64,000 nucleotides of DNA from an uncultured Flavobacteriaceae bacterium (GCA_947500385.1 CANMSA010000007.1:116929-180928); one strand, 5' to 3'; positions 5,140 through 41,671 are shown, counted from the stretch's first letter. Numbers and translations are program-made. Notes: generated by a model not told the origin, from the letters alone.

Positions 5140-8100
5140 TTACTTAAGAATTAGCTTGCCCGTATGTCGCTTAGATTTGGTGATTACCTCAATAATGTAC
5201 ATTCCGGATGGTATTGAACTTAAATCTATTTCTAATGGCCTTTTTACGGAAGTATTGGCCATTTCATAAACCAGTCTGCCATTCATATCAAGAATGCGTG
5301 CCGCTAAAATAGTGGTTTCTTCCTTGGGTATTTCCAACTTCAAAATCCTGTTTTTATTTGGATTGGGATAGAATGTTAGTTTTTCAACACCACTGATATC
5401 CAATAGCGATTTGCCCGCATCATTATCACAAATATTACCTATTCCGTCATCATCTTTATCCGCTTGATCGGCGTTGGGAGTCGTGGGACAGTTGTCATTT
5501 ACATCAAATACGCCATCGCCATCGCTATCTTCACTTAGAAATTCAATAAAACCTTGACATAGCAATCTTTCAGAAAGCGCCCCTCCACAGCTATTGGTCT
5601 CATTATTATAACTTCCGGTGTTTACTGCTTGTTGTTCTGCTTGTAAAATGGTGTCACCTATTGAGATAAAATCTATTTGTAGGTTTTTGTCTTCACCATT
5701 TTCTTCAAGGGATCCATCTAGGAATTCGATTCGTATGGGCGCATTGGGTGTAGGAATGGTAAATTCGAATTGCTGATAGCTTTTGGTCACTTGTTGGGTG
5801 GCCCCAATTTGGGTATCCTCGACCAGTACGCGAAACATTTCTTTACCGCTGTCGCCTTTTGCCTTTACGACCAGTCTGTCACCGCCGGGCGTTCCAGAAT
5901 CTTGGGGATCCTGCAAAAAATATCCGGAAAAGGCGATTAGGTAACCCATAACTTCGATATCCGGTTCATTTACCCAGTGTTTATTGTATGCATCTATATA
6001 CGCCTTAGCAGGTGGGGGTACGTTGTCATTGTAATTGCTGTTGAGATAACTTCTGTCGTGCGAAGGGCCTTTGACCGGAAGCCCGCTAGGTGCAGCATCA
6101 CTAATACTAAAAGGCCTAAAATGCGGGGTTGTCACAGGAGAACTGCCTACACCGGTAATGAACACCTTGCCTAGCGCGTTTCTACCCAATAGGATATGAA
6201 ATTGATCTAGCGCTACATTCTTATATTTGATATCTCCTGTAATGTGATAAGCACCCATCAAAGTCCATGCTTTGTGAAGCATGTTTCCAATGGTATGCCG
6301 GTGCTCCCAATACTTCTCTGGCAATATATTGCCATAACCGTCCGAAGTATTTTGAGCCATGTAAGAACCAAGTTGCGCCTTCATCGCATTGATGATATCA
6401 TTTTTAATGGTAGCATTAACGGCCCTATTCTCAATAAGGCAATAGCGCTGCAGTACCTGTAAAAGATTCTCGATACGCATAGAATGTGTATTTGGGTTTT
6501 CTTCCGGGAAGGGATAATTTAGTTTGCTATAGCTGTTATAGATAGCAACAAATTTGTCGTGATATTTTTGTTCCCCTGTGTTGATATATAATTCCATGGA
6601 GAGCCAAAGGAAATCTTCCTCGTAGGTAAAGTCAAAACGATATGCCTCGACCGTATCCGCAGATCCTGTCCTTCCATTCGCGTTTAAAAAATCCCATGCT
6701 GCTATTGCCTTTTGCTGACAGCGATTCGCAAATGCTGTGTCGTAGTCTTTAAATACACGATTTGCTCTGGCCAATACGGCCCCTACTTTACCCGTGTTTG
6801 TGGAGTATACATCCCCGATCAGGTATTCCGTATGATCGTCTTGAGGGGGTACCCTGCTTGGATGACTGTCTTGAACTGGCCCAAGACCAATGGAAACACC
6901 GCCGTCATCGTTCATCATCTTTATCATCCAATCCAGCCCCCATTTTGCCTCTATCAACAAATCGGGCATACCGGAAATACGCTCATTTGAAGCTAAAGAA
7001 GAGGGGATTTCATCAAATTCACGGGGAAACAACTCTGCTATTTCCAACATTCTATTGACCGCCTGGGCATGGCTCATCGTCGATCTTCTGTAATCGCCTC
7101 CATTATGCCAGCCACCTTCAACATTTCTATTGTCCGCAATGTAGTTACCATCTACATATCGCTGTTTGCCGGCATGCAAGTGGCATTTAGGATGCCCTAC
7201 AACCTCATGTTGAACAGCATAACTACAACGGCTGGAATAGATCCCCCTCAACGAAGTACGGAACAACTCCTGGTACACTCGATCACCAATAACAAAAGCA
7301 GGAGAGGTTTGTTCATTTACCTTGACCCTGTACCTACCAGGGGTGGTAAAATCTGAAAAATCACCTTTGAAGACGTTTTCATTGGCGTATTTATCGTATT
7401 TGGAATCAGACATGTTTCCTGTAAACACTACGTTGTTATCAGTATCCAATAACTGGAAAGAAGCCGCTGAAAAATTGGTCCTAAAGTCTTTGGGATGTAA
7501 GGTTTCGTAACCTACTTGATTTACATGTATTTTGTCCGTCGCATTTCCTGTGGCATTGGAATCGCTTGATCTTGGGTCGTAATCGGTTTGTATGTTCAAA
7601 GGCGTATTACCGGCGTTTGCTATGGCATCCCATTTTACAAATTTGTAACGTGAAATTTGATTTGCCACTCCGTCGTGGGCCAAAAACATGCCTTTCGCGA
7701 AATCGCCTCCTAAATTCACGTTAGTAACATCAATACCATCTGTATTTTGAACATCGGTGAGAGCAAAGCTTTTGAGGTATTTGTTTTTTGCCTGACTATC
7801 TGCAAAGGTTCTTTCGAAAACCGCGTACTGATTTTTTCCCTGGACCGATGCTATTAAATATCCATTTCCCGAGTTTCCGTAATACAACGTTAACCCCTCC
7901 ACATCTGCAGCAAGGTTGGCATTACCGGAGACGGCAGCGACAGTCACTCTTTCATTCATAAGTACACCGTCGCCGTTGGTAGGGTACCGATAAATACCTT
8001 TGTCCTCAGCGGCGATGTAGATGACGTTTTTCTCGTCATCCGCCACAATTCCTTCAACTTCAGTTCCGTTGCCACTAACATCTATTACCGCTGTTACCCG

Positions 8101-14126: not shown

Positions 14127-15227
14127 CTACTTGTTTACAGCAAAAATCTCTTTTAACTGTTTGACCATACCTCCGTTCCCGGAGACGGTGATCTCACCAA
14201 TCTTTTCGGCGATTTTCTCCACATATTCCATCTCTTTCAACTTGAAGAGCATTTCGTTTTCTTCCATTAGTTTAGCGGTGTTCAGCAAACTTCGGGTAGA
14301 AGCGGTCTCTTCACGTCGTGTAATGGTATTGGCCTGTGCCTGTTTTTGTGCCACAAGCACTTGGTTCATGATAGCCTTCATTTCACCCGTTAAGATGACA
14401 TCTCGGATACCACAGTTCAGTACTTGTACGCCCAGGTCGGCCGCTGTTGTCTTGATTTCGGAAAATACCGCATCGGCGATGCGTTCCTTTCGCTCTAACA
14501 GCTCATCCAAGGTATAGGTGCCTATGTAGGCACGCAATACCAATTGAATGGCAACATACAACTGCTTTTCGTAGTCTTTGTTTTCCAACAAGGCCTTTTC
14601 AATAGCAACTATCTTATACCGGGTATAGCAGTTGATTCGAATAGCGGCCTTGTCCTTGGTCAACAATTCTTGCCCTGCGATTTCGAGTTGCAATTGTCGC
14701 ATATCGGCGCGTGCAATCTTTACCGAGGTATCGTTTTTCCAGAAGTGGTATACCCCACTGTCCAGAACCTTCACGAAGGTATCCTCGACCAGTAACAGCG
14801 CTTTTTCGTATGCCAAAATCTCCAATACACGAATGTAAGGGCGTAACAAAGGATGTCCTAGCAGCATTTTGCCAATGGGTTCGGTGATGTAGATTTTACT
14901 CAAATCGGCCATCACGAACTCATAATTGATCAATCCTTTCCAGAAAGCATATTTACCGGCTGCAAGCACTTTTTTCAAAGTCCCGTTTTCAGATACCAAT
15001 GCCAACTCCGCATCTTTTACCTCGATAACGTGTAACATTGCCTCCAAACCTTGGTCCTGTAGCAAAATCTCCAATGCTATCGGGGCCACAAAGGCTTTGG
15101 TGAGGTCGTATACCATCACCATGTTTCGTAGGCCTACCCAGTGTGTGCCTTGGGTAATAACGTTTTGGTAATCTCCATTTTTGAAGACCAAACCTACTTT
15201 TCCTGCATTGATTCGTACTCGTTTCAT
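14127..15227 (-). CDS. Slipin (SPFH/band-7) family protein
   Basis: GQELLTKDK, GIRDVIL and RREETASTRSLLNTAKLME motifs of the RtcB-associated slipin family. Confidence 0.9.
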   Translation of the reverse strand: MKRVRINAGKVGLVFKNGDYQNVITQGTHWVGLRNMVMVYDLTKAFVAPIALEILLQDQGLEAMLHVIEVKDAELALVSENGTLKKVLAAGKYAFWKGLINYEFVMADLSKIYITEPIGKMLLGHPLLRPYIRVLEILAYEKALLLVEDTFVKVLDSGVYHFWKNDTSVKIARADMRQLQLEIAGQELLTKDKAAIRINCYTRYKIVAIEKALLENKDYEKQLYVAIQLVLRAYIGTYTLDELLERKERIADAVFSEIKTTAADLGVQVLNCGIRDVILTGEMKAIMNQVLVAQKQAQANTITRREETASTRSLLNTAKLMEENEMLFKLKEMEYVEKIAEKIGEITVSGNGGMVKQLKEIFAVNK

Positions 15228-15630
15228 TATTCAAAATTTGTGTCCGCCAGTCGATTGACGGACGAACGGGTTAAACTATTTTCATTTATTATTAGTTGGT
15301 TTAATTCTCTTTTAAAAAACCGCAACTACAAATCATCTATTCGATACGGAAATATAGGTTTTCGAAGTTCGTTACGATTTGTTTTTCGGTATGCTTCGGT
15401 CGGTGTTGCCAATACTATGTATTGGTTTTTCCGAGGGAAGGATGTTCAAAAAAGAAATTGCCTTTCACATCAAAAATTCAGTATTTCAAAGTAGTTTCAA
15501 GACTGTTGATTCATCCGAAGAAAAACCAACCGACCTATACCTACGGTTTTTTGCCAATTATACGGAGTGACCGTCCGGTGGTCTTTTTACAAGTGACCTT
15601 CTTGTTCAGAATGGATTTCAAGTCCATATC

Positions 15631-15707
15631 CCACATTATGAGTGTGGTGCTCTACCAACTGAGCTAAGAGATCTAAAAAAAGTGACCTCTGCAGGAGTCG
15701 AACCTGC
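15631..15707 (-). ncRNA. Circularly permuted tRNA(CAT)-like module (T arm > closed acceptor stem > D arm > anticodon arm)
   Basis: Minus strand reads GCAGG-TTCGACT-CCTGC AGAGGTC-A CTTTTTTTA GATCTCT TA GCTC-AGTTGGTA-GAGC A CCACA-CTCATAA-TGTGG. AGAGGTC/GATCTCT form 7 bp, with the 3' half preceding the 5' half. Confidence 0.6.
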
Positions 15708-15710
15708 GCG

Positions 15711-15806
15711 TACTTCTGTTGTTCTAACCAGGCTGAACTACATCCCCATTTTTTGTGAAATGGTTTGTGGGGAAGGAGGGATTCGAACCCCCGACTTACA
15801 GATGTA
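15711..15806 (-). ncRNA. Circularly permuted tRNA-like (YrlA-topology) module lacking an anticodon loop
   Basis: TAC-A-TCTGT AAGTC GGGGG-TTCGAAT-CCCTC CTTCCCC [21-nt loop] GGGGATG TA GTTC-AGCCTGGTTA-GAAC A ACAGA-A-GTA. The acceptor stem has 6/7 pairs and the closing stem is 5+3 bp. Confidence 0.6.
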
Positions 15807-15932: not shown

Positions 15933-16082
15933 ATTCCCGCGAAAGCGGGAATCTTTTACGATTTCCCTATGCGAAGCGTAGGCCTCGCCAGGGAATCTTA
16001 TCTTTCAATGAACTTTAATAAACCTCGCAACACACCTTGTTGCTGCGAGGCACCCCCGCAAACCACAGCTTATGTGGTTTGC
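15933..16082. repeat. Cluster of four GC-rich palindromic hairpins (REP-like)
   Basis: attcccgc-gaaa-gcgggaat; ttccct...agggaa; cctcgca...tgcgagg; gcaaaccaca...tgtggtttgc. Confidence 0.55.
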
Positions 16083-16092
16083 ACTATATATT

Positions 16093-16435
16093 AAAAAGCG
16101 TACTGGGAATACCCACGCTTATGGACAAGCTTTCGTAGGAGTACGGCAAAAGCCTTCCCTACTTTTCCACGCGCTTTCCGTTGCTTTGGAAATCGCGTAC
16201 TTGTCCGATGCCAGATACATTGTAACCGTTCGGCGACTTAGACTCGGCCTGCATAGCGGCTTTGGCCGCGCTTTGCAATTACAGGGGTTGGCTCCCCCAC
16301 CGTTCATAGGTGTCCCCTTGCGGGGCGACCTACTAGAATGTTCACCGCATGGTATCGGTTTGCGACCGCTACCACCCCATATCTTGCAATGGGTTTAGGC
16401 AACTACTAGCTGCTACAATGCCCGAAGTCTTTTGC
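16093..16435 (-). ncRNA. Candidate large structured ncRNA B (~340 nt)
   Basis: No credible ORF. Hairpins CCCC-GCAA-GGGG, CGGT-CGCAA-ACCG and GCGGC-CAAA-GCCGC; long-range 7-bp pairs CATTGTA/TACAATG and GGACAAG/CTTGTCC; terminator-like 3' hairpin plus U-run. Confidence 0.6.
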
Positions 16436-16496
16436 TTTTCTGATGCTCCCGAATGAGCTAAGAGACTAATGGGTTGCTCTTGGGAATCGAACCCAA

Positions 16497-16890
16497 ACAA
16501 AAGGTTGGCTTAGAAGAAGGGCTTCGAGAATGGCTCCGTAGATTTTGGCCTACAAAATACCAACCTTCTTCTTGAGTGCCTCCCGGCACACGGTATGTGA
16601 AGCTACCGAACAGTTTCCTATCAGGTACCTCTGGTACTGCACCAAGCTCCGCTGGGTCGGATGCCCCATACGTAACCTAGTACTACAACTTTTCCTCTTG
16701 GTGTCTCCACCGCAAGCCTACACAATGTATCGGCTATAAGTCCCGAGGTTGCCTCAGCGGTCGCCCCCGGCGTATCGTGACTTATGTTGGTTGCTTGCTT
16801 ACCTGCACTACCTTCCGAAGAAGGCAGTCTCCGCCTGCGATGCCCGCATGCAGATTTATCCTTGTTACCAAGTTTATCTGAGGACGATAA
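16497..16890 (-). ncRNA. Candidate large structured ncRNA A (~400 nt)
   Basis: No credible ORF. ACTGCCTTC-TTCG-GAAGGTAGT, GGTG-GAGA-CACC, GTGCC-GGGA-GGCAC, ATAAGTC/GACTTAT and AGAAGAAGG/CCTTCTTCT helices. Confidence 0.6.
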
Positions 16891-16939
16891 GCCGCCCCGT
16901 CATTTACAAGAAATGACGATTTTATTAGAAGAAGCCCAT

Positions 16940-17070
16940 ATGGACTTCTCTATTTCAATGAACGTTCCTCTGAGGCCGACGCGCCATCTGGCCCATTCGC
17001 AAAAAATGTCCACTGGACATTTTCTTAACGCGCTGGCCTACCACAGCTCTTCCCTTTGAGCTAAAGAGGC
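16940..17070 (-). pseudogene. tRNA 5'-half remnant interrupted by a palindromic element
   Basis: GCCTCTT TA GCTC-AAAGGGAA-GAGC followed by the palindrome AAAATGTCCAGTGGACATTTT; no matching 3' acceptor strand. Confidence 0.5.
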
Positions 17071-17172
17071 ATTTTGTTAAAGCCCCACAACACTCCTTTG
17101 TTGTTGTGAGGCACTCCCGCAAACCTCTTTTTGAAAGGCTAGTTTTTAATTACACAACAAAATTGAATCATA

Positions 17173-17195
17173 ACTACGCAATGATTATGCGTAGT
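17173..17195. promoter_or_regulatory. Probable WYL-regulator operator, perfect palindrome ACTACGCA-N7-TGCGTAGT
   Basis: Same arms as at 40597-40619; lies just upstream of a minus-strand CAATTTTG -7-like element. Confidence 0.75.
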
Positions 17196-17827: not shown

Positions 17828-17832
17828 TTTTG

Positions 17833-17905
17833 GGTGACTTGAGAGATTCGAACTCTGTTCTTCGCTTTCACACAGCGATGTTTTACCACATAAACTAAAG
17901 TCACC
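17833..17905 (-). tRNA. tRNA-His(GTG)
   Basis: 8-bp acceptor GGTGACTT/AAGTCACC (G-1), anticodon arm TCGCT-GTGTGAA-AGCGA, T loop TTCGAAT. Confidence 0.75.
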
Positions 17906-17911
17906 ATGTTG

Positions 17912-17982
17912 TTCATCCGATAGGATTCGAACCTATACGACAAGAATCAAAGTCTTGTGTGCTCCCATTACACAACGGATGA
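17912..17982 (-). tRNA. tRNA-Gln(TTG)
   Basis: TCATCCG/CGGATGA; CAAGA-CTTTGAT-TCTTG; ATAGG-TTCGAAT-CCTAT. Confidence 0.85.
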
Positions 17983-18053
17983 ATTTTGTAGGCCTAAAAG
18001 GATTTATTCATGTCACTTCTATTGTTTTTTAACCGTATTCATGAATGCTCCTC

Positions 18054-18167
18054 ATTTGAACCCATACCACAAGGGTCGAAATGCTTTTCAGCATTCACGA
18101 ACTCCTTAATTTAATTAAACAAGGGCGTGAGCTAAACCTTGTATGCTAACCATTACATCACGGGTCT
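18054..18167 (-). pseudogene. tRNA-Arg(TCG) with 52-nt anticodon-loop insert and missing 3' end
   Basis: AGACCCG TG ATGT-AATGGTTA-GCAT A CAAGG TTT[52 nt]TTTCGAC CCTTG TGGT ATGGG TTCAAAT, after which the sequence diverges. Confidence 0.6.
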
Positions 18168-18184
18168 ATTTGCAAGCTTAACAA

Positions 18185-18256
18185 TCCCGAGACTTCGGGA
18201 GAACTCTTGCCTCAAGGGTAGAAACCTTACGTGCTATCCATTACTCTTTAGACTAC
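18185..18256 (-). pseudogene. Degenerate tRNA-Arg(TCT) with T-loop palindrome
   Basis: AAGG-TTTCTAC-CCTT, then GAG-TTC-[TCCCGAAGTCTCGGGA]; the 3' acceptor is lost. Confidence 0.5.
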
Positions 18257-18259
18257 TTT

Positions 18260-18335
18260 TGGTACTCCACCTTGGATTCGAACCAAGACTAAACAGGGCT
18301 TAAACCCGATGCCTCTTCCGTTGGGCTAGTAGAGC
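18260..18335 (-). tRNA. tRNA-Leu(TAA), short variable loop, CCA encoded
   Basis: GCTCTAC/GTGGAGT-A-CCA; loop TTTAAGC; CTTGG-TTCGAAT-CCAAG. Confidence 0.7.
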
Positions 18336-18451
18336 AGTGATAAAAGGAGAGCGATTCCCTTCGACTGTGCTCAGGATACACTTCTCTTCTGTTTTACTTT
18401 TTACAAAATTTCAAAAGAACTTACCGAATACAGCTATTTCCATTTTTTTAG

Positions 18452-18525
18452 TACAGGGAGAGCGATTCGAACGCTCAAATACCTGATTCTAAATCAGGAG
18501 CCTTTGCCATTTTGGCCATCCCTGC
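18452..18525 (-). tRNA. tRNA-Leu(TAG), short variable loop
   Basis: GCAGGGA/TCCCTGT; CCTGA-TTTAGAA-TCAGG; GAGCG-TTCGAAT-CGCTC. Confidence 0.8.
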
Positions 18526-18531
18526 AAATCG

Positions 18532-18615
18532 TTGAGGCATTAGTCCCGACACTTCGGGAGAACCTAAGACTCCCGTGTTAAAAGGACGGTACTCTACCAA
18601 CTGAGTTATACCTCA
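18532..18615 (-). pseudogene. tRNA-Lys(TTT) with 16-nt palindrome in T loop
   Basis: TGAGGTA/TGCCTCA; loop CTTTTAA; TTAGG-TTC-[TCCCGAAGTGTCGGGA]-CTAA. Confidence 0.7.
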
Positions 18616-18620
18616 CTTTG

Positions 18621-18702
18621 TACTCTGTAAGGCCCCGACGCTTCGGGGGAACCCCTGTTTCCTGATAGAAAGTCAGGCGTACTACCATTATACGAACAGA
18701 GC
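18621..18702 (-). pseudogene. tRNA-Glu(TTC) with 16-nt palindrome in T loop
   Basis: GCTCTGT/ACAGAGT; CCTGA-CTTTCTA-TCAGG; AGGGG-TTC-[CCCCGAAGCGTCGGGG]-CCTT. Confidence 0.7.
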
Positions 18703-18716
18703 AAAAGTCTGAGAAG

Positions 18717-18867
18717 TCCCGCATTAGCGGGACGACCTCCCGCTTCCAAAGCGGGCAAACAACTCCCGACACTTAGGTCGGTATCCTGACTTTCGCGATG
18801 GCGAAACGTCAGGACCCGTACCTTCCCGATAGACAGTCGGGTGCTCTAGGCTTTGAACTACGGTACT
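18717..18867 (-). pseudogene. tRNA-Asp(GTC) 5' part followed by a stack of palindromic inserts
   Basis: GTTC-AAAGCCTA-GAGC, CCCGA-CTGTCTA-TCGGG, ACGGG-T, then a ~50-nt double hairpin and two more palindromes; no 3' acceptor. Confidence 0.6.
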
Positions 18868-18870
18868 TTG

Positions 18871-18954
18871 TGGAAGTAGTAGTCCCGACACTTCGGGAGA
18901 ACCCTTAATTCCACATAGAAAGTGTGGCGTCTTAGCCGTTTGACCAACGTAGCC
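18871..18954 (-). pseudogene. Chimeric tRNA-Glu(TTC) with T-loop palindrome
   Basis: GGCTACG...CCACA-CTTTCTA-TGTGG AAGGG-TTC-[TCCCGAAGTGTCGGGA]-CTAC TACTTCC-A; the 3' strand does not pair with the 5' acceptor. Confidence 0.6.
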
Positions 18955-18959
18955 TTTTG

Positions 18960-19031
18960 CGGTTCATACGAGAATCGAACTCGTATCTCCCGAGAGACAG
19001 TCGGGAAGGATTGCCATTACCCCAATGAACC
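18960..19031 (-). tRNA. tRNA-Asp(GTC)
   Basis: GGTTCAT/ATGAACC-G; CCCGA-CTGTCTC-TCGGG; ACGAG-TTCGATT-CTCGT. Confidence 0.85.
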
Positions 19032-19039
19032 CAATTTTG

Positions 19040-19111
19040 TACACCTACTAGGATTCGAACCCGGACTGAAAGAGTAGAAGTCTTTAGTGCTATCCCTTAC
19101 ACCATAGATGC
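19040..19111 (-). tRNA. tRNA-Arg(TCT)
   Basis: GCATCTA/TAGGTGT; AAAGA-CTTCTAC-TCTTT; T loop TTCGAAT with one T-stem mismatch. Confidence 0.8.
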
Positions 19112-19117
19112 TTCTTG

Positions 19118-19199
19118 TGGGAATGATAGGATTCGAACCTATTAAGCCAAAGCACCAGTTTTACAGACTGGCTCAACCCTCCATCGTTGACGCATTCCC
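19118..19199 (-). tRNA. tRNA-Tyr(GTA)
   Basis: GGGAATG/CATTCCC; CCAGT-CTGTAAA-ACTGG; longer variable region; ATAGG-TTCGAAT-CCTAT. Confidence 0.85.
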
Positions 19200-19206
19200 T
19201 TTTTTG

Positions 19207-19279
19207 AGACAAGGACAGGATTCGAACCTGTAAAAAACAGATTTGCAGTCTGCCACCTTAACCATTCAGCCACCTTGTC
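19207..19279 (-). tRNA. tRNA-Cys(GCA)
   Basis: GACAAGG/CCTTGTC with U73; GCAGA-CTGCAAA-TCTGT; ACAGG-TTCGAAT-CCTGT. Confidence 0.85.
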
Positions 19280-19283
19280 TATT

Positions 19284-19434
19284 TGGCGGAGTTGAGCCCC
19301 AAGGCTTCGAGGGAATACCGACGCTTGGGTCGGTATCCTGACTTTCACGAACGTGAAACGTCAGGACCTCCACCGCCTCTGGTGCGGCCTTGTTTAGCAG
19401 ACAAGTGTAACAAACCAGTATTTACCTACTCTCC
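19284..19434 (-). pseudogene. tRNA-Ser(GCT) with composite hairpin insert in T loop
   Basis: GGAGAGT...CTTGT-CTGCTAA-ACAAG, long variable arm GCCGC/GCGGT, GGAGG-T-[~70-nt insert]-...ACTCC-G-CCA. Confidence 0.65.
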
Positions 19435-19443
19435 ATTTTTTTG

Positions 19444-19517
19444 TCTGAGAGACAGGATTCGAACCTGCAACCTCCTGCATCCAAGGCAGGTAAACCAAAC
19501 CATCGTTATCCTCTCAG
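19444..19517 (-). tRNA. tRNA-Pro(TGG)
   Basis: CTGAGAG/CTCTCAG; CCTGC-CTTGGAT-GCAGG; GCAGG-TTCGAAT-CCTGT. Confidence 0.85.
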
Positions 19518-19522
19518 TGTTG

Positions 19523-19610
19523 CGGAAGGAGTGGGGGTCGAACCCACACGAGGCGTTAACTCCTAACTGTTTTCAAAACAGCGACCACCACCAAATTGGT
19601 TTGCCCTTCC
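19523..19610 (-). tRNA. tRNA-Ser(TGA)
   Basis: GGAAGGG/TCCTTCC-G; GCTGT-TTTGAAA-ACAGT; long variable arm; GTGGG-TTCGACC-CCCAC. Confidence 0.85.
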
Positions 19611-19616
19611 ATCTTG

Positions 19617-19691
19617 TTGACCCGATGGGAATCGAACCCATGACCTCGACCTTAAAAGGGCCTTGCTCTAACCTGGCTGAGCTACGAATCA
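19617..19691 (-). tRNA. tRNA-Lys(TTT)
   Basis: TGATTCG/CGGGTCA; GCTC-AGCCAGGTTA-GAGC; loop CTTTTAA; ATGGG-TTCGATT-CCCAT. Confidence 0.85.
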
Positions 19692-20471: not shown

Positions 20472-20975
20472 TTAGGGGATATCCGATTCTAACTTCCTTT
20501 TGATTCTACTTTCCTCCGCCTCAATAAAGAATATCTCGTCGTTGACATAGGTATTCTTTTTTGCTTCGCTCAAGTGTTTCAGTGACAGCTTGTAATTTTC
20601 AGTTGTTTCCAAAGCAAACGCCGAAACACAATATAAACTTGCTTTATCAATACCCTTAATGGTAAAACCAAAATTGATCAGTTTAAAGGCTCTCTCGATT
20701 TCATCTGCCCAAATTAAGTAGGTAGCATACATAGGATATACCTCTAAATAGTCGGTGCTGATAGCGATTACCCTATCAAAACAGTCAAAAGCTTTGGCAT
20801 ATTGATTCAAGTTTTTTGCGTATACCTCTCCAAGCATACATAGTACCGCACAGTAATTTTCGTTGTAAGAAAGGGCGTAATTTAGCGATTCACACACGTC
20901 AATCCAATCAACGCAAGGGCCATTCATCGCTTCTTTGGCCTTTAAGTAATAGGTGTCTGCTATCGTTAGTTCCAT
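20472..20975 (-). CDS. TPR-like protein (paralog 2)
   Basis: LTIADTYYLKAK...LNYALSY; helical TPR-like pattern; close paralog of 21556-22086. Confidence 0.8.
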   Translation of the reverse strand: MELTIADTYYLKAKEAMNGPCVDWIDVCESLNYALSYNENYCAVLCMLGEVYAKNLNQYAKAFDCFDRVIAISTDYLEVYPMYATYLIWADEIERAFKLINFGFTIKGIDKASLYCVSAFALETTENYKLSLKHLSEAKKNTYVNDEIFFIEAEESRIKRKLESDIP

Positions 20976-21056
20976 AGTTGTTTTCTTAATTGGCTTTTAG
21001 TTTTGCCGTTTAGCCTTACATTTTTAATGCTCGTCTTGATCTTTAGAGTCGTTTCC
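20966..21056 (-). pseudogene. Degenerate duplicate of prfH 3' end
   Basis: Aligns with 22077-22168; ends QLRKQLWN* versus prfH QLRKQQWD* and overlaps the TPR start in the same way. Confidence 0.7.
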
Positions 21057-21210
21057 TCACTAAACCGGAATAAGATGTAGGCTTTGCAAGCGCAATTGAT
21101 TTCCCAACAGTTGAGCAAAGCTACTGTTGAATGGGAGTCATCTCGATTTCTTTGTATTGATGTCATGAAAGACTATCGATCACTATTATTTGAACACTGG
21201 TCAGATTTGT

Positions 21211-21447
21211 TTAATCAAAAGAGGCTTGCAACTTTTTAAGTCTATTCAACTCGCCAATGTTAGGGGGCAATTTGGTAAGCTTGTTTCCTCTCAGGTCTAG
21301 ATTCTTTAATGATTGAATTTCTTTGATTTTTGGCATCAACTGAATAAGATCTTCATTTGTAAGTTCCAAACTTGTAAGAGCCAACGTATTGCTCCATTGC
21401 TCTTTTGCTGTCCTTATCAATCGTTCTGCCTCGGTAATGTTTCCCAT
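21211..21447 (-). pseudogene. Truncated leucine-rich-repeat protein fragment
   Basis: LKNLDLRGNKLTKLPPNIGELNRLKKL, stopping after about two repeats (78 aa). Confidence 0.65.
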
Positions 21448-21555
21448 ATATCTACTTGTTTGTTAGTAAGTATGGGAAAGGGGTAGTTTCCCCCAACGAA
21501 AAGTAGAAACAATTAGGTTTGGGAGCTTCAGTGCCCTGCTGTGCGGGCATCAACC

Positions 21556-22086
21556 TTATTTTCGAAGTTTCTTTTTTTGTCTTTTGGAAGCAGGCTTCTT
21601 ATCCAATTTCAACTTTTTTTTGATTCGCTTTTCCTCTCCTTCGATAAAAGAAAAGTAGTCTTCGTTAAAAGAGTACTTTTTGGACTTCTTCAGATATTTC
21701 AGAGCAATTTGATAGTGCTCTTGGGTTTCCGCGGCATAGGCGGAAAGCCACAACAGACTGCCTTTTGATACGCCCTTTAGGGTCAATGCAAAAGCGATTA
21801 GATTTGTCGCTCTTTCAATTTCATCTGCCCAGATCAAGTATAAGGTGTACATGGGATAAACGTCCAAGTAATAGTTGTCTAAGGCGATTACTTTATCAAA
21901 ACATTCGAAAGCTTTCTCATATTGATGTAAGTTTCTGGCATACACGCTACCAAGAAGGCAAAGTGCCGCACAATGATTTTCGTCATAGGACAGGGCATAG
22001 TTTAACGATTCGCATACTTCGTCCCAGTCATAGCCGCGCGCGGCCTTGGCCTTTAAGTAGTAGGTGTCTGCTATGGTTAGTCCCAT
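21556..22086 (-). CDS. TPR-like protein (paralog 1), coupled to prfH
   Basis: MGLTIADTYYLKAK; TPR-like helices; Lys-rich tail; overlaps the prfH stop. Confidence 0.8.
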   Translation of the reverse strand: MGLTIADTYYLKAKAARGYDWDEVCESLNYALSYDENHCAALCLLGSVYARNLHQYEKAFECFDKVIALDNYYLDVYPMYTLYLIWADEIERATNLIAFALTLKGVSKGSLLWLSAYAAETQEHYQIALKYLKKSKKYSFNEDYFSFIEGEEKRIKKKLKLDKKPASKRQKKKLRK

Positions 22087-22769
22087 TGTTGTTTTCTTAG
22101 TTGGTTTTTTAGTTGTTGCCGTTTTGGCCTGTATTTTTTAAGTGTTTTTTGAGGTTTAAAGTCGGTACCTTTAAAAATACGAACAGGATTTCCACGCTGT
22201 AAATCCAAATGATTTTCCCATTGATCGGTCATCCTGCTTTTTAATTGCGCTAGGTTGGCTTCCTTCACCTTTTCCTTCAACCGAGCGATAGCCAATTTTT
22301 TATTTTGATGTTGAGAACGACTGTCCATCACTACTACCTGAACGCCCGTTGGGGTATGAATGGCGCGAACAGCGGAGTTTACTTTGTTCACATGCTGTCC
22401 TCCTGGACCCTTGCTCCGCATGGTCTGAAATGAGATTTCTTTTTCAGTTACCTCCATGGTCTGCGTCATTTTTAATTCGAAAGCGCCGATGAACCAGTTT
22501 TTCCGTTTATGATGTTTTCGAAATCTCGAGGTGCCGATCCATTGAATGGTACCCAGCCAAGTTGCTAAAAAAGTAGCTAGGTCCTTCCCTTTTAAGCAAA
22601 TTGTAACCGATTGTACAGTGCCGTTTTGGGTGCCTTTTTCCTGATGTAGGATGCTATGCTGAATACCTGCTTTTTTGGTTTCCTGCAAGAATAGTTTAAG
22701 TACTTGGGCAACCACCCAACCACATTCCGAGGGCCCTCTACCAGCTGTTATCTGTAGTATTTTTTCCAT
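22077..22769 (-). CDS. prfH: Peptide chain release factor H
   Basis: LQITAGRGPSEC, WIGTS, RKNWFIG and GPGGQHVNKVNSAVRA..PTG (GGQ); adjacent to rtcB. Confidence 0.93.
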   Translation of the reverse strand: MEKILQITAGRGPSECGWVVAQVLKLFLQETKKAGIQHSILHQEKGTQNGTVQSVTICLKGKDLATFLATWLGTIQWIGTSRFRKHHKRKNWFIGAFELKMTQTMEVTEKEISFQTMRSKGPGGQHVNKVNSAVRAIHTPTGVQVVVMDSRSQHQNKKLAIARLKEKVKEANLAQLKSRMTDQWENHLDLQRGNPVRIFKGTDFKPQKTLKKYRPKRQQLKNQLRKQQWD

Positions 22770-22859
22770 GGTTTTTTTTAGTATTTAGTAGTAGGTACTG
22801 AGTACAAAGTATTTTATCATACCTCCTTTGTCCTTCATACTCATATCTCACTACACTTT

Positions 22860-24251
22860 TCACTTATTCATTCGTACTATTTTAGGCGTAAAGGTTCCGA
22901 GTACCTCTACCAACTCTTGTTGATTCGCCATGACCTTCTCAATGTTTTTGTACGCCATGGGCGCTTCGTCGATACCTCCACCAATAAGGGTGACCTCGTG
23001 TTTTTGCAACTGCTTCTTGATCTCACTTTTGGTAAAAGTCTCTTTGCACTTTCGTCTTGAAAAAAGACGCCCGGCGCCATGGGAGGCAGAATTTAAACTT
23101 GTTGTATTTCCCAAACCCCTTACGACATAACCCGGCGCGGTCATGGAGCCGGGAATAATTCCCAGTTCACCTTTTGCCGCCGGAGTCGCTCCTTTTCGAT
23201 GCACGATACACTCCTTGCCGTTCAACTCCTGTTTCCAGGCCAAGTTGTGATGGTTCGCTATTTTGAACAATGGCTTTACACCTAAAAGTTTGGCCAATCT
23301 TGTGTGAATATTATCATGACAAGCGGTTGCATAATCTCCCGCTAAGTTCATGGCCAACCAATATTCCTGTCCGTCATGGGTATCCAAATCGAGCCAAGCA
23401 AGATGCTGTACATGTTTGGGCAGTGGGCATTGCTTTGTTGCCAAATAAGTATAGTGTTTCGCTATTTTGGCGCCCAGACCTCTAGAGCCACTATGCGACA
23501 AAATCCCAAGGTATTCCCCTGGTTTTAAACCCCATTCGTTCTGAAGGTCGGTAATGGAAACACTACCGAATTCCACAAAGTGATTGCCTCCACCGGAAGT
23601 ACCCAATTGTTTGTAGGCGGTATCCTTTAGACTTTTAAGTCGAGGGATGTTTTTAAATTCGTCCCGTTCAAAGATTTCATGATCATGCTTTATGGAATGC
23701 GTCTCGCGCATACCGAACTTGGTATGTTCGGAAAGCATGTTTGCCAATTGATGCTTCTTTCCTTTAAGGTAGGAAACCGCAATTGGATAAACGGTCAAAC
23801 ACATACTACAGCCAATATCGACTCCGACCCCATAGGGGATGACCGCATTATGGGTCGCCAACACCCCTCCGATCGGTAGGCCATACCCGCTATGTGCATC
23901 GGGCATCAATGCCCCCGCCACAGAAACCGGTAGTTTTAAAGCATCGTACAATTGATACTTCGCTTGCTGTTCAATTTCATTTTCACCATATATCTGAAAA
24001 GGGGCACGCACTTTTTTGAGTTCCTGTTTTTTAACGATGACCGGGTCTAACAAACTTTCGGCAATCTTTCCCCATACCCCATCACCTTGATAGTCTTCTG
24101 GGTGCAACAATACTTTTTTAGCTACGGTCAATACCTGCTCCTTTTTCATTCGCTTGTGGTATCGGTTGATCTGCCCCAAGGTAATGTTGATACTGTTGTT
24201 CTTTGGAAAACCTAATTTGATCAGGTCCTTTCCGCTTAATTTCTTTCCCAT
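22860..24251 (-). CDS. rtcB: RNA ligase RtcB (PrfH-linked type)
   Basis: PDAHSGYGLPIGG, GVDIGC, GTSGGGNHF, HSGSRG, HHN, HRKGAT, PGSM, SHGAGR and DEAP motifs. Confidence 0.95.
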   Translation of the reverse strand: MGKKLSGKDLIKLGFPKNNSINITLGQINRYHKRMKKEQVLTVAKKVLLHPEDYQGDGVWGKIAESLLDPVIVKKQELKKVRAPFQIYGENEIEQQAKYQLYDALKLPVSVAGALMPDAHSGYGLPIGGVLATHNAVIPYGVGVDIGCSMCLTVYPIAVSYLKGKKHQLANMLSEHTKFGMRETHSIKHDHEIFERDEFKNIPRLKSLKDTAYKQLGTSGGGNHFVEFGSVSITDLQNEWGLKPGEYLGILSHSGSRGLGAKIAKHYTYLATKQCPLPKHVQHLAWLDLDTHDGQEYWLAMNLAGDYATACHDNIHTRLAKLLGVKPLFKIANHHNLAWKQELNGKECIVHRKGATPAAKGELGIIPGSMTAPGYVVRGLGNTTSLNSASHGAGRLFSRRKCKETFTKSEIKKQLQKHEVTLIGGGIDEAPMAYKNIEKVMANQQELVEVLGTFTPKIVRMNK

Positions 24252-24917: not shown

Positions 24918-25208
24918 CTATAATATTTCTATTACCTTACCATACACATTTTTAGTCCATCCGTTAATTCTTCCATGGTTGTTACCAATTAACAAGCCAC
25001 GTTTGTTATTCTTTCCTTTTACAAGGTGTGTAAATACATTTCCACGTACTTTACAATAAACAATGTCACCTACCTCACAATCTTCCCCAGCGATGGGCGC
25101 AATACGCACCGGCTGTTTAGATTTGAGTAAGGGCAACATAGAATTCCCGGGTTCTTTTGAAATGATGGTTTTTCCATCATTGAGTTTTTGAATTTTCCAA
25201 TTCATCAT
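24918..25208 (-). CDS. Small S24/S26 peptidase-fold-like protein
   Basis: GNSMLP followed by VGDIVYCK...FTHLV...GNN resembles LexA/signal-peptidase boxes; no transmembrane anchor. Confidence 0.55.
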   Translation of the reverse strand: MMNWKIQKLNDGKTIISKEPGNSMLPLLKSKQPVRIAPIAGEDCEVGDIVYCKVRGNVFTHLVKGKNNKRGLLIGNNHGRINGWTKNVYGKVIEIL

Positions 25209-37227: not shown

Positions 37228-38706
<1,479 letters not shown>

Positions 38707-38735: not shown

Positions 38736-38758
38736 TTCGCGCAATGATTTTGCGTAGT
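38736..38758. promoter_or_regulatory. Probable WYL operator, imperfect (TTCGCGCA-N7-TGCGTAGT)
   Basis: One arm is identical to the 17173 and 40597 sites; followed on the minus strand by GAAGTTTG, upstream of the second rtcB. Confidence 0.65.
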
Positions 38759-38763
38759 TGGGT

Positions 38764-39828
38764 TTATTGCTGTTTTTCGTTATAGAATTCTTGCCTAACA
38801 CTCGCCAAGAGACTATTTGCAAGCGTTAAGTTAGGGCGATCCTTCAAGTGAGACTTTCGGAATATAATTTCTAACTCGGCTCTTAGTAATTCAGCTTTTT
38901 CAACCAATTCTTCATATTCCAATTCCGCATTTTTTACGGCCAGTAAAAAATCCCTATCCGATCTACGAACTATTATCTTGCTTTGTTCTCCTATTTCCTT
39001 TGCCATATGCAACAAGCGAAACGTATGCATCATGTTTTTGGCATCGTAGTTCTTACTGTGCGAAACATTACTTTTATAGCGTTCATTATTTCTTTTTTCA
39101 ACCCAAGACCAATATTCCTTATACTTTTTGCAATACGATGAGTATCCATCTACGTTGAAATACAGCAGTGCAATGGGTACCTCTGATTTGGGTATGGAAC
39201 TGAGACATACCTCATTTGCATGCGCCCTAGCGATTCCGTTGTACCCCATGGTAGTATCGTAGAAAAGATTGTAGCAATCTTTCATATGACTGATTTTTGC
39301 CAATCCGCAATGGTTGATTTCTAAACCCTCTTGATGTAAAAATGTTTTTAACGGCATGGCGCGTTTTTCTGTTCTTACAAAACAAAAATCGACTACAGAC
39401 CTTCGCTCTTTTTCAACAGGGTTCACGATTTTCTTTTTGAGCCCTCTCGCCTTTTTAATTTGCGTAAAAGCGTAGTTCGCAAAGGTGTCCTTACACAATT
39501 TCGAAAGAAAGTATTCGGATTTCAATTTGTCAAAGAGAGGATGTTTCTGCAGAACACAATCCTCAGGAATGCTTAATAGTTCAAGGATATTGGGATTGTT
39601 CTTTGCTAGTAACTCCACGAACTTTTTAAGCTCATAGTATACGATGTCGTTGGTCTCATTGTTTATTTGACCTACATATTCCAATGAATAATACTTTTCC
39701 TTTGGCAGTACAAAAACTCCACGAATATCGGTATCAGAGGAAGCGGTAGCAAGGCCATATGCTCTGCTACCGCTAATACATTCAAATAGGATGTTTCCCG
39801 AAGCCTTTAGCTCTTTGATTGTTTTCAT
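38764..39828 (-). CDS. Pol-beta-superfamily nucleotidyltransferase
   Basis: GSRAYGLA...SDTDIRGVF, NNPN.LELL and YDAKNMMH..RLL motifs. Confidence 0.88.
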   Translation of the reverse strand: MKTIKELKASGNILFECISGSRAYGLATASSDTDIRGVFVLPKEKYYSLEYVGQINNETNDIVYYELKKFVELLAKNNPNILELLSIPEDCVLQKHPLFDKLKSEYFLSKLCKDTFANYAFTQIKKARGLKKKIVNPVEKERRSVVDFCFVRTEKRAMPLKTFLHQEGLEINHCGLAKISHMKDCYNLFYDTTMGYNGIARAHANEVCLSSIPKSEVPIALLYFNVDGYSSYCKKYKEYWSWVEKRNNERYKSNVSHSKNYDAKNMMHTFRLLHMAKEIGEQSKIIVRRSDRDFLLAVKNAELEYEELVEKAELLRAELEIIFRKSHLKDRPNLTLANSLLASVRQEFYNEKQQ

Positions 39829-40565
39829 TTTGTTATCGTATTGTATAAAAAGCTATTCATTCGTTCACTATCGGGCCTTCCTCCTAAAAGGGATTTGGCG
39901 TACTTTTCATTCACCTCTAGAACAGAGTTTATTAGTTCTATTACCATCTCATTTCTAGCGTGAAGATAGCATTCATTTTTTTTTGATTTAACAGCCATCA
40001 AGTTTCTTATTTCGTCTGCCTCATCCCTTTTTACAAGAGATAACATCTTGCTAAGAACGACAGGTGGCATCGTATTGTGTTCAAGTATCCACTTGCCTGC
40101 TAAAGCGGTTCGCAGTGCGTAAAAGAGACTCTTTAGCTTTACCATATCATCGGTCAGTGTCGCTCTATGTTTTTTGCCCATACTTAAGTAATGATACATA
40201 GCGGCCACAGGAGAAAAACACTCTTTGGCGATTGCTCTAAGCTCTTCTATGGAGTGGCTTTCTCCCATGTATGTGATAGGCGAGAACAAATGTTCTATTG
40301 CTGATACGTTCGACTTTTTGAGTAGGCGCAATTTTTTTCGAAGTTCCCAACCGACCGCGTCAAAATCACCATCCATAAAGTTTATTGTATCCTTTTTTTC
40401 CGAGATCGATAGATACCACTCCAGAGGCGGAGTATATAGAAACCGTACATCGTAATCACTGTCCGGCGATGCGAACCCCCAAGCCCTACTACCAGATTCG
40501 CAAGCGAACAATATATCAACATTTTTATCGGTAGCAAGTGCCTTTAGCTTTGTGTGTATCATCAT
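39825..40565 (-). CDS. Pol-beta-superfamily nucleotidyltransferase (YcgL-like)
   Basis: ESGSRAWGFASPDSDYDVRF, GWELRK and K..FYALR motifs. Confidence 0.9.
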   Translation of the reverse strand: MMIHTKLKALATDKNVDILFACESGSRAWGFASPDSDYDVRFLYTPPLEWYLSISEKKDTINFMDGDFDAVGWELRKKLRLLKKSNVSAIEHLFSPITYMGESHSIEELRAIAKECFSPVAAMYHYLSMGKKHRATLTDDMVKLKSLFYALRTALAGKWILEHNTMPPVVLSKMLSLVKRDEADEIRNLMAVKSKKNECYLHARNEMVIELINSVLEVNEKYAKSLLGGRPDSERMNSFLYNTITK

Positions 40566-40596
40566 TTCTAAATTTATAATACAAACTTGAAAACGA

Positions 40597-40619
40597 ACTA
40601 CGCACTTATTTTGCGTAGT
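40597..40619. promoter_or_regulatory. Probable WYL operator ACTACGCA-N7-TGCGTAGT
   Basis: Perfect palindrome in the 92-bp gap between the divergent WYL gene and the NTase-NTase-rtcB operon. Confidence 0.8.
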
Positions 40620-40657: not shown

Positions 40658-41671
40658 ATGGCCCTCAATAAAAACGCCCTAATTCGTTACAAGACCATCG
40701 ATAAATGTCTGCAAAACAACTACCGCCAATGGACCTTGGACGATCTGATCCAGGCCTGTTCCGATGCCCTTTATGAGTATGAGGGAAGGGATGTAAACGT
40801 AAGCAAACGCACCATACAGTTAGATATTCAACTCATGCGGAGCGATAAATTGGGGTACAATGCCCCGATAGAGGTCTATTCCAAAAAGTACTATCGTTAT
40901 GCCGATGAGGGTTTTTCCATCACCAACATTCCCATAACGGAAAACGATATGGACGTACTGTCGGAAACGGTGGAGATGTTGAAACAGTTCAAGGATTTTT
41001 CACTGTTTTCGGAACTAGGCGGAATTATTCAACGGTTGGAAGATACCGTGTATACCGAGAAGACCCACCAAGCATCGATTATCCATTTAGATAAAAATGA
41101 AAACCTCAAAGGCCTGCACTGGTTAGATGAATTGTATCGAGCCATCCAGAAAAAGGTAGTATTGGACATTACCTATCAATCTTTTAAGGCTTCCAAACCC
41201 AACGTAATCAAATTTCATCCTTGTTTGCTAAAAGAGTTTAACAATCGTTGGTTTTTGATAGGAATGGGCAGAAAAGGCAGGGGCGTGGTAAACCTAGCGC
41301 TGGACCGTATCATATCCGTTGATTATGATTTTAAAACCGATTATAAAGATTTTGAGTTTAATGCCGACACTTTTTACAAAGACGTAGTGGGAGTTACCGT
41401 AAACCAAGGGGAGCGACCCTCAGATATAAAACTTTGGATAGATAGGCATAATGCACCCTATGTACTTACAAAACCATTACATCATTCGCAGTATGTTGAA
41501 AAAGAGCATGAAGACGGGAGCGTTGAGGTAATGATAAAAGTAAAAATCAATTTTGAATTGGAACGTTTGCTACTTGGTTTTGGAGAAGCCTTGGAGGTAT
41601 TGAAACCAGAGCGGTTGCGGAAGAGGGTTTCAACGAAATTGGCCAAAGCGGTCGCTATGTATCAAGACTAA
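40658..41671 (+). CDS. WYL-domain transcriptional regulator (HTH-WYL-WCX)
   Basis: RY..IDKCL, RTIQLDIQ.MR..LGYNAPI HTH; LKEFNNRWFLIG...ALDRI WYL core; C-terminal WCX. Confidence 0.92.
   Translation: MALNKNALIRYKTIDKCLQNNYRQWTLDDLIQACSDALYEYEGRDVNVSKRTIQLDIQLMRSDKLGYNAPIEVYSKKYYRYADEGFSITNIPITENDMDVLSETVEMLKQFKDFSLFSELGGIIQRLEDTVYTEKTHQASIIHLDKNENLKGLHWLDELYRAIQKKVVLDITYQSFKASKPNVIKFHPCLLKEFNNRWFLIGMGRKGRGVVNLALDRIISVDYDFKTDYKDFEFNADTFYKDVVGVTVNQGERPSDIKLWIDRHNAPYVLTKPLHHSQYVEKEHEDGSVEVMIKVKINFELERLLLGFGEALEVLKPERLRKRVSTKLAKAVAMYQD

Follow-up and report, generated by a model that had tools for sequence, protein, structure and literature searches.

Putative operator palindromes and promoters in the window

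Here, we describe a palindromic element in 64,000 nucleotides (nt) of DNA from an uncultured Flavobacteriaceae bacterium (GCA_947500385.1 CANMSA010000007.1:116929-180928; hereafter the window, i.e., the whole stretch that was analyzed). The element, at positions 17173-17195, precedes a minus-strand unit of non-coding RNAs and a slipin gene, and it recurs in the window ahead of genes for RNA repair. It is best described as the putative operator of a DriD-like WYL regulator that would control a Bacteroidota regulon for RNA repair and translational stress, a description supported by comparison of sequences across the phylum. The sites and genes concerned are the following (bits refer to the weight matrix described below).

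17173-17195, unstranded: putative operator O1, perfect ACTACGCA-ATGATTA-TGCGTAGT, 31.9 bits; precedes the GOLLD/YrlA-like/slipin unit and lies 25 nt after the stop codon of an RNaseH-like gene
17158-17165, minus strand: -7-type box CAATTTTG, 7 nt from O1, for the GOLLD/YrlA-like/slipin unit
40597-40619, unstranded: putative operator O2, perfect, 28.8 bits; in the divergent WYL/RlaP intergenic region, 38 nt before the ATG of the WYL gene
40582-40589, minus strand: -7-type box CAAGTTTG, 7 nt from O2, for the rlaP1-rlaP2 operon
38736-38758, unstranded: putative operator O3, TTCGCGCA-ATGATTT-TGCGTAGT, 18.9 bits; 6 nt after the rlaP2 stop codon
38721-38728, minus strand: -7-type box GAAGTTTG, 7 nt from O3, for rtcB2
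40658-41671, plus strand: regulator with WYL and WCX domains and a putative winged helix-turn-helix (wHTH), the proposed operator-binding protein (Pfam, profile comparison)
39825-40565, minus strand: RlaP nucleotidyltransferase 1 (PF10127; E 3.8e-69 and 1.2e-28 for the RlaP pair)
38764-39828, minus strand: RlaP nucleotidyltransferase 2 (PF10127)
38649-38678, minus strand: leader hairpin of the rtcB2 transcript, GCCCTGCCGA-ACGTTTGGAG-TCGGTGGGGC
37228-38631, minus strand: RtcB2-type RNA ligase (PF01139, E 2.4e-36)

Searched as a 23-base consensus with 16 specified bases, ACTACGCA-N7-TGCGTAGT occurs in two exact copies in the window (17173-17195 and 40597-40619). With three or fewer mismatches 0.05 matches are expected, and none of 100 shuffles gave two or more. 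The occurrence of the palindrome in the window is real and far beyond chance. O3 is the third-best match to the strict consensus (12/16), with an intact distal half-site, a degenerate promoter-proximal half and a preserved GCGCA-N7-TGCGTAGT core; since position 4 is A or G in orthologous sites (ACTRCGCA), it scores 13/16 with its core intact. A weight matrix was built from 75 sites upstream of metagenomic WYL orthologues, at loci picked via the protein and not the motif. Across the 64 kb, O1-O3 alone stand out in this matrix; the next-best position reaches 1.5 bits and the best score over 50 shuffles of the window 7.3 bits. A preliminary description of this DNA had reported the three palindromes, and every detail of their coordinates, sequences and spacing proved correct on re-reading, including the imperfect third site.

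On the minus strand, each of the three sites is followed after exactly 7 nt by an nAnnTTTG box. The preliminary description had seen a minus-strand nnnnTTTG element beside all three palindromes, which is now read at this fixed distance. The Bacteroidota promoter consensus is -33 TTTG / -7 TAnnTTTG with a spacer of ~19 nt. Judged by sequence and position, the nnnnTTTG box corresponds to the -7 element of Bacteroidota promoters and keeps a constant 7-8 nt to the operator, and the 7-nt spacing puts the operator centre at the -33 position. Transcription driven from O1 is predicted to start near 17149-17150. Contigs from two metatranscriptomes that cover the GOLLD, Y-like and leader regions were short and diverged and thus unusable for mapping transcription starts.

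We scanned one genome per species (185,579 species) for exact matches and obtained at least 119 loci (L001-L119). Among the matches listed, TTTG is found at +12 from the palindrome in 64 and at +13 in 25 of 200 Bacteroidota flanks, and at +12/+13 in 2 of 46 flanks from other phyla. The phylum-wide logo of the effector side shows nAnnTTTG at +8 to +15 (A9 0.66, T12-T14 0.71-0.91, G15 0.70), 7 and sometimes 8 nt from the operator end, plus a conserved A at +23/+24. A TTG at 17-21 nt spacing is present in none of the oriented sites. A canonical -33 TTG inside the operator was rejected, as the sole TTG, at the junction of spacer and half-site, is 13 nt from the -7 box and too close. A promoter on the WYL side, likewise spaced by 7 nt (in the window, TATTTTTA), is unsupported by the phylum-wide logo: that flank is A-rich from +1 to +6 and carries a T-run from +17 to +20, so that autoregulation, if any, would have another geometry.

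The WYL regulator and its putative regulon

The regulator encoded next to O2 has a WYL domain (PF13280, E 2.6e-10, residues 155-221) and a C-terminal WCX dimerisation domain (PF25583, E 3.8e-14, residues 256-331). Its N-terminus matches HTH_11 weakly (E 0.011, below cut-off) and keeps an SxRTxQxDxQ motif. Putative recognition-helix residues S49, R51, T52, Q54, D56, Q58 and R61 are invariant or nearly so among 33 orthologues of 32-80% identity, and this invariance matches that of the operator, which is near-invariant across the phylum.

About 97 of the exact-match loci listed are from Bacteroidota, and the classes with the palindrome among the matches listed are Flavobacteriia, Saprospiria, Chitinophagia, Cytophagia, Sphingobacteriia and Bacteroidia. 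When the Bacteroidota loci were searched by tblastn with the window proteins, the palindrome was found either immediately next to WYL orthologues (32-89% identity), which as a rule diverge there from RtcB or RlaP, or 0.5-2 kb ahead of slipin. A WYL orthologue starts within 120 nt of 79 of 218 sites (among the matches listed) and is the sole regulator that consistently adjoins the palindrome across classes. The preliminary description had suggested both a genome-wide motif scan and phylogenetic footprinting. The scan placed the palindromes mostly in Bacteroidota, beside WYL, RtcB, RlaP and slipin genes. By footprinting, O1 and the internal rtcB2 site are conserved at orthologous positions: O1 in L102, L061, L120 and L157, and O3, which separates rlaP2 from rtcB2, in Cellulophaga (L067), a Maribacter metagenome-assembled genome (L112), L124 and L157, with the promoter-proximal half-site degenerate in all four.

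The protein side was examined independently of the motif. An alignment of the 33 WYL orthologues was used to fetch 80 metagenomic loci. Upstream DNA was available for 76 orthologues, and in 37 of these a site scoring 13/16 or better lies no more than 400 nt ahead of the start, mostly 24-50 nt away. By chance, ~0.1 such sites would be expected over the set, as estimated from 3.8e-6 per position. Many of the other protein-selected WYL loci have sites 0.6-1.1 kb upstream. The degenerate consensus of the protein-selected sites is tttACTRCGCA-AwnwnwT-TGCGYAGTaaa.

Two groups of exact matches stand apart. In Cupriavidus, 13 exact matches (among those listed) all represent one conserved locus, with cstA on one side and a Cache-histidine kinase/LuxR pair on the other (L009, L039, L040, L059, L063, L064, L072, L076, L089, L091, L116, L118). 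There, the 16 specified bases come with extra flanking half-site copies beside a Cache-HisKA_3/LuxR two-component operon, and we rejected these sites as part of the system in favor of an unrelated operator that arrived at these bases by convergence. Two loci labelled as members of other phyla, L008 (Flexilinea) and L107 (Cyanobium), have the operator together with a -7 box of the Bacteroidota type, and in L008 WYL and RtcB genes adjoin the palindrome. They are either mis-binned contigs or products of horizontal transfer. A phage-borne operator was also rejected, as a scan of viral contigs gave one exact match, in an unrelated context without tRNAs or regulon genes.

For a census of targets, we took the first recognisable gene downstream of 196 oriented promoters (weight matrix at least 14 bits, TTTG at +12/+13). 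Among the matches listed, the classes are:

RtcB2-type: 40 of 196 promoters
RtcB1-type: 31 of 196 promoters
Slipin: 31 of 196 promoters
471-amino-acid (aa) protein with a weak Prok-RING_4 match: 22 of 196 promoters
Ro/TROVE: 9 of 196 promoters
RlaP: 7 of 196 promoters
193-aa protein, no family named: 7 of 196 promoters
Hen1: 5 of 196 promoters
T4 Rnl1-like ligase (Rnl): 2 of 196 promoters
Smaller or unresolved classes: 42 of 196 promoters

By this census, the putative regulon elsewhere in Bacteroidota also includes RtcB1-type ligases, Ro/TROVE, Hen1/Pnkp and Rnl. The preliminary description had united the two nucleotidyltransferases, rtcB2, the non-coding and tRNA-like RNAs and slipin in a single regulon. 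The two independent comparative tests support this proposal, and the membership is upheld, yet the regulon is larger phylum-wide. TROVE genes, for instance, are members in other genomes (e.g., L021, L069, L104, L195); the window has no TROVE homologue, and slipin is the adjacent protein there. A CARF/sigma-54 RtcR or an rtcA beside rtcB was not found in a Pfam scan of the open reading frames (ORFs) from 12.9 to 43.8 kb, and the genes flanking both rtcB copies encode RlaP, ARPP-1, PrfH and TPR proteins. The ~470-aa Prok-RING_4 protein (sub-threshold match; L080:5591-7006, with homologues in L133, L135, L138, L141, L153 and L154) has no counterpart in the window. In every case ~500 nt of non-coding DNA, which may hold another RNA, lie ahead of its gene.

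Among the RNA-repair genes of the window, RlaP enzymes extend RNA 3' ends by one or two nucleotides (PMC12776372). The start of rtcB2 is likely the ATG at 38631, as the listed TTG at 38664 falls inside the leader hairpin. An ARPP-1 family gene (PF20208; 36075-37187, plus strand) is convergent to rtcB2, is without its own operator, and adjoins rtcB2 also in Cellulophaga (L067). A second RNA-repair module (20472-24251, minus strand), without an operator in the window, comprises RtcB1, PrfH and two paralogous TPR proteins; a conserved 96-aa ORF (24918-25208) lies upstream of it. RtcB-PrfH-TPR is a described module for ribosome rescue and repair (PMC6514570), and RtcB1-type genes stand directly behind the palindrome in many other Bacteroidota. 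Its named members are:

22860-24251, minus strand: RtcB1
22077-22769, minus strand: PrfH

Mode of action and alternative explanations

On these comparisons, the palindrome is probably the operator of the regulator encoded at 40658-41671, and the units behind it probably form one Bacteroidota-wide regulon. Several points weigh against this. L001-L119 were picked by their exact palindrome, which biases counts taken from this set, and binding by the WYL protein is deduced from sequence comparison, which leaves room for another factor. The profile alignment of the regulator family to DriD covers the WYL-WCX region only (E 2e-9). A single-sequence structure model of the regulator is poor (predicted local distance difference test score, pLDDT, 35; three helices at residues 5-61 with pLDDT 59-86). 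The weight-matrix search did not find an operator at the rtcB1-prfH module in the window, so that the regulon differs between genomes, and GOLLD lies behind the operator in only two Maribacter genomes (among the matches listed) and may thus be an incidental insertion. Finally, the WYL ligands known so far are single-stranded DNA (ssDNA) or cyclic di-GMP, and CapW did not bind poly-U RNA (PMC11662680), which makes an RNA ligand speculative.

The WYL family is split into activators and repressors (PMC11662680). Given that the WYL protein binds the palindrome, DriD-like activation appears to be the likeliest mode, and we hold it with moderate confidence. It is favored by the operator position, the TACG-N11-CGTA register, and a family profile that is closer to the activators DriD (2e-9) and PafBC (4e-8) than to the repressors CapW (0.018) and BrxR (0.08) when compared with the PDB. 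In Caulobacter crescentus, the DriD operator ATACGAC-N7-GTCGTAT overlaps an absent -35 element at constant distance to the -10 element (PMC13004042). The system in the window resembles DriD, its best profile match in the PDB, in the WYL-WCX domains behind a putative wHTH, in the N7-spaced palindrome with the shared register, and in the place of the operator, which covers the spot where the upstream promoter element is lacking and keeps a constant distance to the downstream one. However, DriD reads ssDNA and controls a DNA-damage regulon from promoters with a sigma-70-type -10 element, whereas the targets here are RNA-repair genes and non-coding RNAs behind a Bacteroidota -7 box, and only the WYL-WCX part is similar in sequence (E about 1e-9).

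In the mechanism that we propose, each of the three minus-strand promoters would carry one dimer-sized operator, 7 nt upstream of its -7 box. Damage to the translation apparatus would yield a nucleic-acid fragment that binds the WYL domain and frees the wHTH domains, and the operator-bound dimer would recruit RNA polymerase to promoters without a -33 element. The outputs would be rlaP1-rlaP2, rtcB2 (from an internal promoter), and a long transcript in the order leader hairpin, small tRNA-like RNA, GOLLD, two YrlA-like mimics, and slipin. That the ligand consists of RNA fragments is conceivable, though we lean slightly against it; only the analogy to RtcR and the nature of the regulon suggest it.

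With the same operator and regulon, the WYL protein could instead act as a repressor of the CapW/BrxR type that sits on the -33 region when ligand-free and is released by damage-derived nucleic acid. The palindromes bound by CapW and BrxR are ~20 bp long and lie in bidirectional promoters adjoining the regulator's own gene, and ssDNA releases both proteins (PMC11662680). TrcR, a functional analogue, is also a repressor, and the operator overlaps core promoter DNA. Yet these promoters have no recognisable -33 element to occlude, a strict distance of 7-8 nt to the -7 box is what polymerase-contacting activators typically show, the family profile is far closer to DriD and PafBC, and the operator has the register of DriD's. 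We therefore regard repression as unlikely, though a serious competitor to DriD-like activation.

Far less probable is that a different transcription factor binds the palindrome and that WYL genes are hitch-hiking beside it. The Cupriavidus locus does illustrate that the same 16 bases can serve an unrelated two-component/cstA locus. However, the WYL orthologue is the only consistent neighbor among regulators, its recognition helix is as invariant as the operator, and an AraC gene beside the window slipin is conserved in none of the compared loci. That the palindrome acts as a nucleic-acid structure, i.e., a terminator hairpin of the RNaseH-like or rlaP2 gene or a repeated extragenic palindrome, is hardly credible: O1 and O3 do lie shortly after stop codons (25 and 6 nt) and an 8-bp stem with a 7-nt loop is possible, but the sequence itself and not pairing alone is conserved, half-site deviations are not compensatory (e.g., ACTGCGCA...TGCGTAGT), no U-tract trails the stem, the palindrome also occurs between divergent genes, where no gene ends upstream of it, and its distance to the promoter box is fixed.

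Two regulons known from other phyla make a WYL-run RNA-repair regulon plausible. In Salmonella, the CARF/sigma-54 activator RtcR responds to tRNA fragments and switches on rsr-yrlBA-rtcBA (PMC7790460). RtcB and tRNA-mimicking Y-like RNAs are under one regulator there and, as proposed from sequence, in the window. RtcR is a CARF-domain sigma-54 enhancer-binding protein, whereas a WYL factor would act here at housekeeping-type promoters; the scaffold protein in the window is slipin and not Rsr, and the putative regulon is spread over several promoters 23 kb apart. In Anabaena sp. PCC 7120, the ribbon-helix-helix repressor TrcR represses a silent, supernumerary 26-tRNA array, rtcB and a slipin operon (PMC10272220). 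In the trcR mutant, rtcB is 77-fold and the slipin operon 42- to 72-fold upregulated (PMC10272220), and the regulon is released by elongation inhibitors or translational stress (PMC10272220, PMC8421152). Co-regulation of a tRNA array, rtcB and slipin was established there by experiment and is predicted here. TrcR differs in its ribbon-helix-helix fold and its 8-bp site over the -10 box, both unrelated to the WYL system, and neither Y-like RNA nor GOLLD was reported for its regulon.

Bacteroidota RNA-repair genes have so far been without a known regulator, and the present analysis offers a candidate regulator, operator and promoter architecture, together with a phylum-wide target list of two RtcB types, RlaP, Ro, Hen1, Rnl, and slipin with Y-like RNAs. 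In the inspected literature on RtcB and WYL and on WYL and RNA repair, we found no description of such a regulon; an earlier mention of WYL for these operons is possible. New here are the operator, the fixed promoter geometry, the target census, the shared leader hairpin, and the placement of GOLLD and the tRNA arrays. If correct, the WYL system would be a third non-homologous solution after RtcR in enterobacteria and TrcR in cyanobacteria, and would extend WYL factors, so far associated with DNA damage and phage defence, to RNA damage. It further predicts that some WYL domains read RNA-derived signals.

RNAs of the slipin unit and the neighboring tRNA arrays

Between O1 and slipin, 1.9 kb of the window are non-coding. 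The unit and the tRNA array upstream contain:

17832-19691, minus strand: tRNA array (11 genes) upstream of O1, oriented as the unit is
17082-17112, minus strand: leader hairpin 1, GCCTCACAACA-ACAAAGGAG-TGTTGTGGGGC
16964-17070, minus strand: short tRNA-like element, 107 nt, with an acceptor-like closing stem and a D-arm (TAGCTCAAAGGGAAGAGC)
16098-16950, minus strand: GOLLD-like RNA, conserved 3' domain at 16572-16098 and variable 5' domain upstream
16022-16051, minus strand: leader hairpin 2, a second copy of hairpin 1 on the downstream side of GOLLD; the GTTCATTGAAA linker comes next
15603-15800, minus strand: two permuted tRNA-like (YrlA-like) modules (direct reading and Rfam)
15228-15602, minus strand: conserved untranslated slipin leader (sequence comparison)
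14127-15227, minus strand: slipin (SPFH/Band-7; PF01145, E 1.8e-24), the last gene of the unit

The gap between promoter and slipin is always non-coding and 529-1945 nt long (31 census promoters, among the matches listed), and all 12 slipin genes of the protein-selected loci have a site 627-1744 nt upstream. In both locus sets, slipin loci with enough sequence have a site ~0.5-2.1 kb upstream in all but L115, where there is no site within 3 kb and the nearest is 4.1 kb away. A module of slipin and a tRNA-like/YrlA RNA near RtcB was predicted by Burroughs and Aravind 2016, as quoted in bioRxiv 10.1101/312249. By that account, the module shares with the window a slipin gene behind a tRNA-like/YrlA-like RNA near RtcB; the operator, promoter architecture, census and GOLLD insertion come from the present analysis.

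Both modules ahead of slipin are arranged as T-arm, acceptor 3' strand, loop, acceptor 5' strand and D-arm, and the second runs on into an anticodon-like arm (CAU). Such a permutation defines the tRNA-like domain of YrlA, and the Rfam alignment likewise covers the T-arm, acceptor and D-arm of the model. Partial matches to Rfam YrlA (RF02553) were obtained at 15800-15713 and 15708-15649 (E 8e-4 and 3.5e-3); their scores of 27.5-29.7 bits, and those of 33-45 bits in relatives, do not reach the gathering threshold of 69, and some of the relatives' matches span model positions 1-114. The tRNA model matches 15673-15603 weakly (32 bits). A YrlA-like match was present in the slipin leader of all 14 Rfam-scanned loci (the window and 13 relatives), and nhmmer found the Y-like region of the window directly behind the operator in more than 20 loci. 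The preliminary description had already noted permuted tRNA-like RNAs here, and arm order and Rfam now identify them as YrlA-like. They share with YrlA the permuted module of T-arm, closed acceptor stem and D-arm; unlike YrlA, they have no partner Ro/Rsr (TROVE) gene in the window, and slipin is adjacent instead.

The large non-coding RNA of the preliminary description is real and was identified as GOLLD (RF02032, 124.2 bits, E 9.4e-34, all 416 model positions aligned). Scores of 124.2 bits in the window and 128.6 in Maribacter (L102) are below the Rfam gathering threshold of 150, and the RNA is best treated as a divergent member of the family. Its 5' domain is alignable to L102 alone. Among the matches listed, the GOLLD segment is confined to the window and Maribacter sp. 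2307UL18-2 (L102). Zobellia (L061) has the counterpart of window positions 17168-17071 fused directly to that of 15954 onward, so that GOLLD must have been inserted into the leader. The window copy is bracketed by the two leader hairpins.

GOLLD has had a solved structure and, since 2009, no known function. It forms 12- to 14-mer cages, occurs near tRNA arrays, and is of unknown function (PMC12286853, PMC12990946); a literature search found no joint mention of GOLLD and RtcB. The window copy is typical in its full-length match to the conserved 3' domain model, its variable 5' domain and the tRNA array 0.9 kb upstream. It differs in its chromosomal context with no recognisable prophage and in its position inside a predicted regulated RNA-repair transcript, between the WYL-type promoter and the YrlA-like RNAs. 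Tentatively, and with more doubt than confidence, we propose that GOLLD, the tRNA arrays, the YrlA-like mimics and slipin form an inducible RNA-damage arm that protects or replaces tRNAs or ribosomes and is switched on by a WYL regulator sensing damaged RNA. If so, GOLLD would serve in coping with ribotoxin or translational stress and not in phage replication as such. Its placement under a defined, predicted stress-type promoter beside tRNA mimics makes its role testable in a culturable flavobacterium.

Supernumerary tRNA arrays are physically coupled to the unit of operator, Y-like RNA and slipin. They end ~20 nt before the operator in L102 (12 tRNAs), L061, L032, L078, L081 and L028, and in L176 the array lies downstream of the operator, ahead of the Y-like RNAs. 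The tRNA density of the array-bearing loci is 141 per Mb. The window array, in front of which the weight-matrix search found no operator, includes tRNAs for His, Asp, Tyr, Arg(UCU), Lys(UUU) and Gln(UUG), which are isoacceptors hit by known anticodon nucleases. An RNaseH_like gene (PF04308; 17220-17714, minus strand) between array and O1 is absent from this position in related loci.

The leader hairpin recurs 46-72 nt after the operator in ~20 other regulon leaders. Its GYNCC stem is closed by a GGNRC strand across a loop such as ACAAGGAG or GCGAUUGGAA; UUAAAAA comes directly after the closing strand, and GUAGY often stands ahead of the hairpin. Over 22 copies, pairing holds in 93.8% of cells and compensatory changes occur at 10 of 11 pairs, with a covariation score of 0.80 vs 0.33 for shuffles and at most 0.17 for slid partners. 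As the copies were gathered by a hairpin finder, this pairing is partly built in, and it is through its conserved position, loop and flanks that the hairpin qualifies as a motif across the leaders compared. The loop is Shine-Dalgarno-like and resembles AACAAGGU of the 16S rRNA 3' region; the hairpin might serve in processing, bind a protein or act as a decoy.

The short tRNA-like element, in which a large insert replaces the anticodon arm, has an acceptor stem of ACCTCTT/AAGAGGT and may be the 'band-7-associated tRNA' of the literature. Versions of 208-209 nt with a canonical T-arm occur in L102 (~2367-2575) and L032 (~6153-6361), and the window copy is truncated. Finally, GTTCATTGAAA stands at module junctions in the window (~16003-16013 and ~16953-16963, minus strand) and also in L102, L032 and L061. 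It follows hairpin 2 and the tRNA-like element and precedes GOLLD, and has the look of a processing signal or of a boundary between modules.

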